Source: Candidatus Parcubacteria bacterium (GTDB lineage Bacteria; Patescibacteriota; Saccharimonadia; UBA4664; JBIOIQ01). From it: a DNA stretch of 64,000 bases. How positions within the stretch are numbered: the first letter of the stretch is position 1; the number at the start of each line of letters is the position of its first letter. Of the stretch, positions 12,091 to 12,792 are shown one piece after another. A program made the position numbers and the translations under genes. The notes beneath the pieces are model-generated. The model was not told the origin of the DNA, ran no database searches, and was given only the letters and a program-made list of their open reading frames with translations. The stretch lies in assembly GCA_963718875.1 (NCBI GenBank), contig OY970378.1, positions 947,691 through 1,011,690 of the forward strand, read 5' to 3'.

Positions 12091-12230
12091 GTGTCCCCTC
12101 TTTATTATTTGGCTAACAGTTTACTTTTAAATCATGCAATATAGTTTGGATAATCATCCAATTATATTGAACTATTTCTTATAGACTTTGTGGTCCCCCA
12201 GACGAGTTAAGAGAAAATTTTATGGTGGAG

Positions 12231-12250
12231 CATAACGGGATCCCGCCACG
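12231..12250 (-). repeat. Partial duplicate of the tRNA-Ala 3' end (tggtggagcataacgggatc), 57 bp from the intact tRNA
   Basis: 20/20 identity with the 3' end of the tRNA at 12307-12382. Confidence 0.7.
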
Positions 12251-12268
12251 GCGGATAAACTTCCCGTT

Positions 12269-12292
12269 GACCTGTCGCCGCGGCGACAGGTC
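12269..12292. repeat. Palindromic direct repeat (gacctgtcgccgcggcgacaggtc), left flank of the tRNA-Ala/GIY-YIG unit
   Basis: Perfect palindrome; a near-identical copy gacctgtcgcctaggcgacc lies at 12660-12679. Confidence 0.6.
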
Positions 12293-12306
12293 TGTTTAAA
12301 AAAACT

Positions 12307-12382
12307 TGGTGGAGCATAACGGGATCGAACCGTTGACCTCTTGCATGCCATGCAAGCGCTCTACCAGCTGAGCTAATGCCCC
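12307..12382 (-). tRNA. tRNA-Ala (anticodon GGC), CCA encoded
   Basis: Reverse complement is GGGGCATTAGCTCAGCTGGTAGAGCGCTTGCATGGCATGCAAGAGGTCAACGGTTCGATCCCGTTATGCTCCACCA; G3:U70 identity pair; anticodon loop ATGGCAT. Confidence 0.9.
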
Positions 12383-12409
12383 CTCAAGTTTTTTCAAAAA
12401 TGTGAGCTA

Positions 12410-12649
12410 CTACAGCCCCATGCTTTTCAATTCATCACTGCCTCTTCCGGTTTTGAGGTACCTTTCTCTGGATACTACTTCTGATCTGGTTTGGAAGTTC
12501 TCAGAGTGAAGTAGAGCGAAGGGCTTATTAAGCTTATCGTAACCACTTTTGCCGGCATTGTGCTCCGATAACCGTTTACTCAGATTATCTGTAGATCCGG
12601 TGTATCGACGCTGATTTTTTTGACTTTTCAGAATATACACATAATACAT
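12410..12649 (-). CDS. GIY-YIG nuclease superfamily small protein (79 aa)
   Basis: MYYVYILKS...RRYTGSTDNLSKRLSEHNAGK is a GIY-YIG core (GIY...YTG...R...EH). Confidence 0.7.
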   Translation of the reverse strand: MYYVYILKSQKNQRRYTGSTDNLSKRLSEHNAGKSGYDKLNKPFALLHSENFQTRSEVVSRERYLKTGRGSDELKSMGL

Positions 12650-12659
12650 AATATTTACC

Positions 12660-12719
12660 GACCTGTCGCCTAGGCGACCGCTCTACCTCCGTCAGCTGAC
12701 GGATGAGCTACTGCCCCGT
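12660..12719. repeat. Right-flank palindromic direct repeat, then the ccgtcagctgacgg palindrome and a fragment resembling a tRNA-Ala 5' end (gagctactgcccc)
   Basis: gacctgtcgcctaggcgacc ... ccgtcagctgacggatgagctactgcccc; the same ccgtcagctgacgg palindrome sits next to the second tRNA-Ala at 14601-14616. Confidence 0.5.
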
Positions 12720-12792
12720 AGTTGTTTTTTAACCAAACTTGGAACTCGGGTTATTCTACCAACTTATAGTTCCGGCAGCAACAGCGGACTTT

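Follow-up and report, generated by a model that had tools for sequence, protein, structure and literature searches.

The window analyzed here is a stretch of 64,000 nucleotides (nt) from a Candidatus Parcubacteria bacterium (GenBank assembly GCA_963718875.1, contig OY970378.1, positions 947,691 to 1,011,690 of the forward strand). It contains a cassette in which an open reading frame (ORF) for a GIY-YIG nuclease of 79 amino acids (aa) is followed by an intact tRNA-Ala(GGC) gene (T), with all features of the cassette on the minus strand. The initial annotation, made from the letters of the window, had described the two genes as bracketed by near-identical palindromes, and this was confirmed: the palindromes at 12269-12292 and 12660-12684 share 84% identity over 25 nt, and their core, GTCGCCNNGGCGAC, was found in only two places in the 64 kb (0.14 expected by chance). 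The sequence resembling a tRNA-Ala 5' end that had been noticed beyond the right palindrome was also correctly recognized (Table 1). A reported 20-nt duplicate of the tRNA 3' end was present, with 100% identity to the last 20 nt of T (12307-12326), at 12223-12242 rather than 12231-12250 and across a gap of 64 nt rather than 57 nt.

The two tRNA "end fragments" are the two halves of one pseudo-tRNA-Ala that is split by the ORF and T. The 5' half (psi5') and the 3' half (psi3') each carry, at the site of the anticodon arm, a GC hairpin of the form GTCGCC-NN-GGCGAC, and the hairpin together with the segment AGGTC is present once at each cassette junction. The bracketing repeat, formerly read as a tRNA end, is a foreign hairpin that replaces the anticodon arm. 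The psi5' half ends 3 nt ahead of the ORF start codon, and the ORF stop codon, TAG, lies within a tRNA 5'-end fragment in which it corresponds to tRNA positions U8-A9-G10. The 12 nt across the ORF end (12410-12421) are all identical to the 5' end of the second tRNA-Ala gene, tRNA-Ala(CGC), at 14576-14587. In its acceptor type, the fragment (GGGGCTG...) agrees with the T genes at two related loci, L001 and L005, and differs from T in the window (GGGGCAT...), suggesting a recombinant history; psi5' and T differ at one acceptor position. The spacing between T and psi3' is 14 nt. The earlier description had missed the pseudo-tRNA halves, the location of CCGTCAGCTGACGG in the D loop and of CCGCCGTGGCGG in the T loop, and the fragment that provides the stop codon.

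An AT-rich inverted repeat, TTTGAAAAAACTTGAG ... AAGTTTTTTTAAA (12295-12317 and 12376-12398), surrounds T and lengthens its acceptor stem by about 14 bp in the predicted fold. Look-up of the exact protein returned one other contig only, from a short-read assembly of the same organism (Logan, ERR12037361), which breaks into two contigs inside T (about 12348-12362). We ascribe this break to the flanking tRNA-derived repeats and not to a polymorphism, and contig ends at tRNA genes may often arise from cassettes of this type. In the nearest database genome, the neighboring MEDS gene has 54% identity and synteny is lacking.

Table 1. Coordinates of the cassette and of related features in the window
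Feature	Position	Strand	Evidence or remark
psi5', 5' half of pseudo-tRNA-Ala; order GGGGCAG-TA-GCTC-A[TCCGTCAGCTGACGGA]GGT-AGAGC-G, GTCGCC-TA-GGCGAC, AGGTC-GG	12717-12653	-	Read directly; 80-88% identity to both real tRNA-Ala genes
Acceptor 5' strand GGGGCAG and D arm of psi5'		-	D loop holds a 16-nt palindrome
tRNA-Ala 5'-end fragment TGAGCTACTGCCCC	12704-12717		82-88% identity to the two real tRNAs
Mini-palindrome CCGTCAGCTGACGG in D loop of psi5'	12689-12702	.	Second exact copy at 14605-14618
Hairpin of psi5', GTCGCCTAGGCGAC, 6 bp	12678-12665	-	In place of the 17-nt anticodon arm
Variable-loop AGGTC of psi5'	12664-12660	-	
GIY-YIG ORF, 79 aa	12649-12410	-	Pfam PF01541, E=1.8e-17
tRNA 5'-end fragment GGGGCTGTAG(TAG)CTCAC	12419-12402	-	Overlaps last ORF codons; repeat search
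Intact tRNA-Ala(GGC) (T), G3:U70	12382-12307	-	ARAGORN; Rfam tRNA, 65.2 bits
psi3', 3' half of pseudo-tRNA-Ala	12292-12223	-	Repeat search and direct reading
Hairpin of psi3', GACCTGTCGCCGCGGCGACAGGTC	12292-12269	-	Perfect 24-nt palindrome
T arm and acceptor 3' strand of psi3', AACGGG[AAGTTTATCCGCCGTGGCGG]GATCCCGTT-ATGCTCC-ACCA		-	Follows the palindrome
Hairpin CCGCCGTGGCGG inside T loop of psi3'	12254-12243	-	
tRNA-Ala(CGC), second tRNA-Ala	14585-14510	-	ARAGORN, Rfam
Two tandem units, 130 and 153 nt, directly after tRNA-Ala(CGC)	14227-14509	-	Repeat search, alignment to tRNA 3' end

The window protein matched Pfam PF01541 over residues 1-68 with a score of 63.8 bits (cut-off, 22.6). It is the only GIY-YIG ORF in the window and the sole Pfam-matching ORF between the repeats. 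Among 36 homologs, including the window protein, Y5, Y16, G18, R26, and E62 were invariant and H30 was at least 90% conserved. From I-TevI and UvrC, we take Y5, Y16, R26, H30, and E62 to be the catalytic residues. Because these are conserved across the homologs, the protein is likely to be an active nuclease. A profile search of the PDB gave 1zg2 (BH0048) at 5.5e-14, 1ywl (EF2693) at 6.8e-12, and SLX1 chains at 1e-6 to 2e-4; with BH0048 and EF2693 as the nearest structures and SLX1 next, the protein is assigned to the minimal Slx1-like/UPF0213 subgroup, the "minimal Slx1-like" class of Dunin-Horkawicz et al. Relatives were numerous, with 5278 at E<=1e-3 and 312 at E<=1e-10 among 1.84 billion cluster representatives. 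The group I intron endonuclease model TIGR01453 scored 22 bits, below its cut-off of 56, and no match was found among PHROG phage families. The combination expected of a free-standing homing endonuclease, a catalytic and a DNA-binding domain with a match to a family model, was not found in the window protein. A defense system was considered and rejected, since PADLOC defense models gave weak matches only.

The arrangement recurs at other tRNA genes. A protein-pattern scan of one genome per species, run with a narrower homolog alignment after a first, broader one had proved too diverse, gave 236 relatives, and 80 loci were analyzed along with L001 to L003; after two duplicates of L002 were dropped, 81 distinct loci remained, all of them found through the protein alone. 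The hairpin or a compensated variant lay within 140 nt of the ORF in 45 of the 81. An intact tRNA directly abutted the ORF in 51 (3 further loci were cut by contig ends), and in 18 the ORF stop codon was U8-A9-G10 of the intact downstream tRNA (offset -9). Twelve loci had the hairpin on both sides of the ORF and tRNA, as in the window (L005, L010, L017, L019, L021, L025, L033, L038, L039, L041, L076, and L078). L001 and L002, with 63-65% protein identity, shared the layout of the window: positions 1-26 of tRNA-Ala, GTCGCC-(GC or GCA)-GGCGAC, AGGTC plus a few nt, and then the ORF, which terminates at a TAG within the acceptor/D region of an intact tRNA-Ala(GGC). Overall, psi5' with its hairpin was found upstream of homologous ORFs in about 25 loci (L001, L002, and L005 among them), and the hairpin with the 3' half was observed downstream of the intact tRNA in L005, L010, L017, L033, L038, L039, and L041. 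The hairpin, the tRNA fragments, and the ORF thus recur at dozens of tRNA loci, which bears out the earlier proposal of a repeat-bracketed, tRNA-associated element around the GIY-YIG gene; that proposal had been made to depend on conservation at other GIY-YIG or tRNA loci, and the features are indeed present there.

Two orders were observed. The first, that of the window, is psi5'-hairpin-ORF-T, with or without a following hairpin-psi3'. The second is T-ORF-hairpin-psi3', with or without a leading psi5'-hairpin; in many of its loci the start codon lies 0-6 nt past the tRNA 3' end, and the ORF ends either within the D loop, at its conserved GGTAGAGC, or within the loop of the hairpin (TGA, TAG, or TAA). 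In at least 10 loci, the ORF start stands in place of the pseudo-tRNA T loop. The tRNAs involved were those for Ala (GGC, CGC, TGC), Gly (GCC, TCC, CCC), Val (GAC, TAC), Ile, Asp, and Pro, so that at least 10 anticodon types were covered, in several phyla. Hosts included Saccharibacteria, Berkelbacteria, Microgenomates lineages, Elusimicrobia, Chloroflexi/Dehalococcoidia, and Omnitrophota. Nucleotide similarity between genomes usually began 50-65 nt upstream of the ORF, where psi5' starts, and usually stopped 64-130 nt downstream, at the end of T or psi3'; the flanks were unrelated. In a low-resolution neighbor-joining tree of about 80 residues, the ORFs clustered by tRNA type across phyla and not by host, the Ala-GGC cluster comprising Saccharibacteria, Elusimicrobia, and Dehalococcoidia; the two ORF/tRNA orders were intermixed, and the loci with variant hairpins formed one clade.

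More distant ORF relatives (L037, L042, L061, L064, L071, and L072) were found beside Leu, Ser, and Gln tRNAs (long-variable-arm or other), where the pseudo-tRNA leaders held other GC hairpins of the form CGCC-NNN-GGCG (TCCGCCCGAGGCGGA, CCAGCCTTAGGCTGG). In a Bacteroidales metagenome-assembled genome (L052, about 2000-2800), two tandem GIY-YIG ORFs each follow the same tRNA 3' end (...GGTTCAATTCCCGCTCCGGGTACA), with a different hairpin, GCGGGAATTCCCGC, at one of the two copies. The tRNA-linked array habit therefore reaches beyond the group with the GTCGCC hairpin.

In the 60 hairpin copies from the protein-anchored loci, the hairpin was always located between tRNA positions 26 and 44. Its flanks, the D-stem strand and the variable loop, matched the local tRNA, as in the case of Pro (...TATCACG-hairpin-AGACAGGCGG). 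In about 50 copies the stem was GTCGCC/GGCGAC with a loop of 2-5 nt, two of them having a 5-bp GTCGC/GCGAC stem. In one clade it was GTCCGA(T)(G)/(C)(A)TCGGAC; the variants GTCCGATG/CATCGGAC and the stem of L081, CTCCGGTG/CACCGGAG, also retained pairing. Pairing was thus kept through changes on both sides, in few independent events. On this sequence evidence, the hairpin is judged to belong to the element and its flanks to the host tRNA. The variable loop length favors an extruded stem-loop (DNA cruciform, single-stranded DNA, or RNA) over a rigid duplex site. Roles as a terminator or promoter were rejected: no T-run follows the hairpin, and a promoter search gave a single promoter-like match with GCGACA as its -35 element and its -10 element inside the ORF.

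Public contigs were also scanned, blind to the ORF, for GGTCGCC-N2-5-GGCGACAGGT; the figures that follow apply among the matches listed. In viral contigs, nearly all of the 23 hairpin matches were chance occurrences in GC-rich coding DNA. With duplicates removed, the viral and metagenome matches comprised at least 143 distinct hairpin sites. Forty-six were in a tRNA-like context, and at 28 of these a GIY-YIG ORF lay within 700 nt; for the 97 sites in other contexts, the count was 1. The 18 tRNA-context sites without a detected ORF fell into several groups. At L134, L218, and L224 the flank was too short to judge, at L184 the ORF was frameshifted, and at L169, L194, and L223 relics of the ORF remained between T and psi3'. 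L193 had T and psi3' 22 nt apart, comparable to the 14 nt of the window, while L185 exhibited exact loss of the ORF (psi5'-hairpin-...ATGTATT joined to tRNA-Ala(GGC)) and L126 a full-length solo pseudo-tRNA beside T. Forms that lack the ORF and keep the hairpin-bearing pseudo-tRNA were accordingly represented in metagenomes by L185, L193, L194, L223, and L126. Tandem arrays of the form T-ORF-psi3'-ORF-psi3' were found at L116, L110, and L199, which include soil contigs, and at L021. The family therefore shows birth, amplification, and decay and behaves like selfish DNA.

A sister clade of the protein, with 45-52% identity to the window protein, was found without any tRNA (L049, L050, L054 to L056, L058, L066 to L068, L075, and L080; also L053, L059, L065, and L083). 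There the ORF lies between perfect inverted repeats of 13-15 bp, (A)TCCCGTTAGAGAT...ATCTCTAACGGGA(T), or compensated variants of these. The right repeat ends in ...GGGATGA, in which TGA terminates the ORF and the overlapping ATG initiates an unrelated host gene; the target genes were pyrG-, glyA-, and murG-like, and the start-codon context was duplicated on the left. From its sequence organization, the sister clade plainly appears to be a minimal transposon-like mobile cassette that inserts at the 5' ends of genes, and it is the clearest sign that this protein family travels in minimal mobile cassettes.

The acceptor strands of the pseudo-tRNA pair 7/7 with each other in L005, L025, L038, and L039 and differ from those of T at compensated positions (for example, in L025, GCGCCCT/AGGGCGC in the pseudo-tRNA versus GCGCGGT/ACCGCGC in T); the T stems of the pseudo-tRNA and T differ also in L038 and L039. 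The halves in L017, L028, and L033 pair at merely 5-6 of 7 positions. The pseudo-tRNA allele of L005 (GGGGATA...) is the T allele of the metagenome locus L185. These data fit a resident tRNA displaced by a cassette bearing another allele; a structural constraint on the pseudo-tRNA at the RNA level would give the same pattern. For a 495-nt transcript of the window locus, the minimum-free-energy and centroid folds both closed the cassette with the acceptor stem of the pseudo-tRNA (z=-6.1), and both hairpin copies and the T arm of the pseudo-tRNA formed as expected. Because the sequences were already recognized as tRNA derived, the fold is not independent evidence. Additional lineage-specific hairpins were present in the T or D loops of the pseudo-tRNA in L009, L010, L019, and L073 and in the window at 12243-12254, and the loops of dead tRNA copies seem to be hotspots for palindromic insertions.

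At the second tRNA-Ala locus of the window, each of the two tandem units that follow tRNA-Ala(CGC) finishes with a T arm that has GTGGCGAAGCCAC in place of its loop, followed by AAGCT(C/T)CACCA (...AAGCTCCACCA and ...AAGCTTCACCA). GTGGCGAAGCCAC includes GCGAAGC, a very stable mini-hairpin motif. The second unit has an extra hairpin, CCCCGGA...TCCGGGG, at a possible anticodon-arm site. The units were absent from the syntenic Obg-tRNA-Ala(CGC) region of L005, and a search for an ORF relic within them gave nothing significant (best E value, 0.07). With low confidence, we interpret them as a relic array without an ORF that arose through a process of the same kind. The mini-palindrome CCGTCAGCTGACGG, which the initial annotation had described just beyond the right palindrome, was absent from every related locus examined. 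It had been correctly seen to have a second copy beside this tRNA, at 14605-14618 and not at 14601; two exact copies in the window compare with 0.18 expected. The second copy is situated 19 nt upstream of tRNA-Ala(CGC), after the stop of a 68-aa ORF, and has no tRNA context, which points to an independent mini-palindrome that has also inserted into the psi5' D loop; by its distribution, CCGTCAGCTGACGG looks like a separate small insertion outside the conserved architecture. The longer form, (C)TCCGTCAGCTGACGGA, a palindrome of 16-17 nt, is identical at 12688-12703 and about 14604-14620 and looks like a tiny mobile or repeatedly generated palindrome. A third candidate copy of CCGTCAGCTGACGG at 41503-41516 has one mismatch, is probably located in the 3' end of a minus-strand coding sequence, and was treated as chance.

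We favor, as the probable though far from certain explanation, a widespread selfish cassette built on a minimal Slx1-like nuclease. It would enter tRNA genes through recombination while a functional tRNA is retained or brought along, and the window locus would be one of its full-form copies. The specific recombination route, as reconstructed below, would deserve less confidence than this general statement. The cassette consists of the GIY-YIG ORF, T, and a repeat of about 20-40 nt at each end, which runs from the 3' strand of the D stem through the hairpin (GTCGCC-N2-5-GGCGAC) into the first part of the variable loop and T stem. Beyond the repeats lie the 5' and 3' remainders of a dead tRNA of the same type, with the hairpin in place of its anticodon arm (positions 27-43). 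The nuclease may initiate the process with a nick or break at the hairpin or a cruciform, or in a conserved loop of the tRNA gene. Recombination via the tRNA-homologous arms that flank the hairpin/anticodon heterology would then put the ORF and T into a resident tRNA gene, either by a double crossover or by way of a small circle that integrates in the Campbell manner. A circle comprising the D-strand-hairpin-variable-loop segment, the ORF, and T, on recombining with a hairpin-bearing pseudo-tRNA site, would give the two-sided form with its duplicated hairpin; exchange with an intact tRNA on the 5' or the 3' side of the heterology would yield the two one-sided orders, and unequal crossing-over would give the tandem arrays. 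The resident tRNA copy would be inactivated and a working tRNA kept or supplied, so that T may be incoming cargo. Since a working tRNA is kept, the insertion would be harmless at entry, and it would be hard to lose if T were the sole gene for its anticodon. The ORF is probably expressed by cotranscription with the tRNA, its U8-A9-G10 stop codon being taken from T and its ribosome-binding site probably from the G-rich remnant of the T stem.

Several observations weigh against this explanation. The ORF tree has the low resolution noted above, and the Saccharibacteria tRNA-Ala(GGC) loci are only 55-68% identical in protein, so that long vertical residence fits as well as repeated invasion. The placement of the hairpin between positions 26 and 44 is exact even in tRNAs with little flank homology (Pro and Asp), which homologous recombination alone explains poorly. 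The hairpin is kept at both junctions, indicating that insertion spares the hairpin target, unlike in classical homing. Finally, the protein is a catalytic domain only, lacking a DNA-binding domain, and would not be expected to home sequence-specifically in the manner of I-TevI or SegB unless it has a partner or a structural target.

The missing DNA-binding domain, the hairpin at both junctions, and the exact placement between positions 26 and 44 keep alive two alternatives, a structure-guided mechanism and a role of the hairpin-bearing pseudo-tRNA at the RNA level. The former, which we regard as a tentative proposal at less than even chances, is that the hairpin is the working site of a new element that replaces tRNA genes. 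A structure-specific minimal GIY-YIG nuclease would read the stem-loop, in DNA or in the transcript, at the anticodon-arm site and drive insertion or excision of the ORF and tRNA there; with its own tRNA gene dead, the host would be addicted to the essential tRNA of the cassette, and the sister lineage would use terminal inverted repeats at start codons instead.

We consider it unlikely that the gene is domesticated and not mobile, with the split pseudo-tRNA serving, through pairing of its halves, as a "tRNA scaffold" by which RNase P and RNase Z process and stabilize a transcript that contains the nuclease mRNA and the tRNA, or the hairpin-bearing pseudo-tRNA serving as an anticodon-less tRNA mimic (a regulator, decoy, or protein partner). 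Such an RNA-level role would account for the closed 495-nt fold, for the compensatory acceptor and T-stem pairs that join the pseudo-tRNA halves in L005, L025, L038, and L039, for the exact position of the hairpin in unrelated tRNA types with compensated stem variants, and for an ORF that stops inside the tRNA or, in the other order, starts 0-6 nt past its 3' end. However, the pseudo-tRNA is without an acceptor strand or reduced to one half at many loci (L018, L019, L023, L024, and L082), L001 is without psi3', and at the loci with an incomplete pseudo-tRNA only the D-strand-hairpin-variable-loop core is kept. Moreover, the acceptor halves are mismatched in L017, L028, and L033, no Rfam family matched, the fold derives from tRNA sequence as stated, and selfish DNA typically shows such frameshifted ORFs, relics, and arrays.

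More doubtful still is that the locus is a by-product of replication slippage or repair at highly transcribed tRNA genes, with the nuclease a host repair enzyme located there by chance. Slx1-type enzymes are structure-specific repair nucleases, extra lineage-specific hairpins do occur in pseudo-tRNA loops (the D and T loops in the window, L009, L010, L019, and L073), and the ORF-less tandem units at tRNA-Ala(CGC) vary between genomes, all consistent with such a hotspot. Yet the same hairpin is at the same tRNA position across phyla, unlike what independent slippage would give, the linkage of hairpin and ORF is tight, and the ORFs cluster by tRNA type, not by host. The initial annotation had seen in the tRNA-end duplications the classic footprint of site-specific integration, and partial tRNA duplicates, such as the exact 20-nt copy here, are indeed a well-known product of phage or integrative and conjugative element integration; nevertheless, that these are ordinary attL/attR-type scars of the integration and loss of a larger element, with the GIY-YIG ORF an unrelated neighbor, is scarcely credible, given that there is no recombinase, that the entire unit spans about 500 nt and its one ORF encodes 79 aa, that the duplication involves both the 5' and the 3' part of the tRNA, and that the repeat core is a non-tRNA hairpin kept with the ORF in dozens of loci of several phyla.

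If the selfish-cassette explanation is true, the uncharacterized minimal GIY-YIG (UPF0213/Slx1-like) family gains a concrete biological role, and the cassette, at about 0.3-0.5 kb, would rank among the smallest autonomous mobile units known. Its insertion would be made harmless without splicing, through duplication or replacement of the essential gene that it enters. It would also account for many "partial" or odd tRNA predictions and for assembly breaks at tRNA genes in genomes of the candidate phyla radiation (CPR) and other metagenome-derived genomes. The exact exchange of the anticodon arm for a fixed hairpin in at least 10 tRNA types would provide an entry point to structure-guided recombination at tRNA genes.

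A number of known elements and RNAs were compared with the locus. Known partial tRNA genes have been ascribed to integrase-borne elements or to CRISPR activity. Integrase-type islands and prophages have direct repeats of the tRNA 3' part at both ends; here the shared repeat is the hairpin plus AGGTC, a foreign core, in addition to the differences in recombinase and 5' duplication already described. A phage or plasmid origin was rejected, as the viral hairpin matches were mostly chance, one plasmid match was weak, and PHROG gave no match. In Rfam searches at gathering scores and at E<=1, the window contained the two tRNAs only, with no rtT or intron match, and a known RNA family was therefore rejected; a tfoR match of 19 bits, against a gathering score of 70, was attributed to chance. 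A group I intron in a tRNA gene was likewise dismissed, since, besides the lack of an Rfam intron match, nothing interrupts the intact tRNA and an anticodon loop is missing from the pseudo-tRNA. An archaeal-type split or permuted tRNA was rejected because, when the halves are joined, a 6-bp stem and a 2-nt loop occupy the anticodon-arm site.

The tRNA-linked rtT repeats of Escherichia coli tyrT are tandem units located after the tRNA, and each terminates in a duplicate of its 3' end. In the window, the units at 14227-14509, which belong to the second locus only, resemble them in this respect; unlike rtT, they carry hairpin-substituted loops, and there is no sequence or Rfam relation.

In tRNA-dependent lysogeny, mycobacteriophages inactivate a tRNA gene of the host and bring their own substitute for it. 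The cassette is similar in that a dead and an intact copy of the same isoacceptor occur together with the ORF, and these phages provide a precedent for an insertion that is harmless yet indispensable. However, they are 40-60 kb in size and use a tyrosine integrase with a core of about 10 bp, whereas the cassette measures about 0.5 kb, encodes a nuclease but no integrase, and has a hairpin where the anticodon arm would be.

SegB, one of the free-standing GIY-YIG homing endonucleases of T-even phages, is a precedent for the proposed mechanism: its cleavage sites lie within tRNA genes, it favors its own inheritance, and it drives homing and the recombination-dependent tandem amplification of segB and tRNA genes. 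The similarities are a GIY-YIG gene among tRNA genes and tandem arrays of the ORF with tRNA-like sequences. The SegB motif RAWTSGAAC can be read as the conserved T loop, the loop that the ORF start replaces in the pseudo-tRNA of at least 10 loci here. In contrast to SegB, a phage gene product with a DNA-binding domain, the protein described here has 79 aa, comprises the catalytic domain only, and is chromosomal in CPR and other bacteria. A conserved hairpin pseudo-tRNA has, to our knowledge, not been reported for SegB.

The protein is most like the UPF0213 proteins 1zg2 (BH0048) and 1ywl (EF2693), single domains of about 80-100 aa. Searches of open-access PubMed Central and bioRxiv, which do not cover subscription journals, returned no report of a function or tRNA-gene association for UPF0213 proteins, nor any account of a tRNA and a hairpin-substituted pseudo-tRNA with a minimal GIY-YIG gene between them. 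Minimal bacterial Slx1-like proteins were described by Dunin-Horkawicz et al. as a minimal, possibly ancestral form of the superfamily, and the same authors posed as an open question whether such minimal members are molecular parasites. The cassette is on balance best regarded as a nuclease-driven selfish unit at tRNA genes, of which the window locus would be a typical full-form member.

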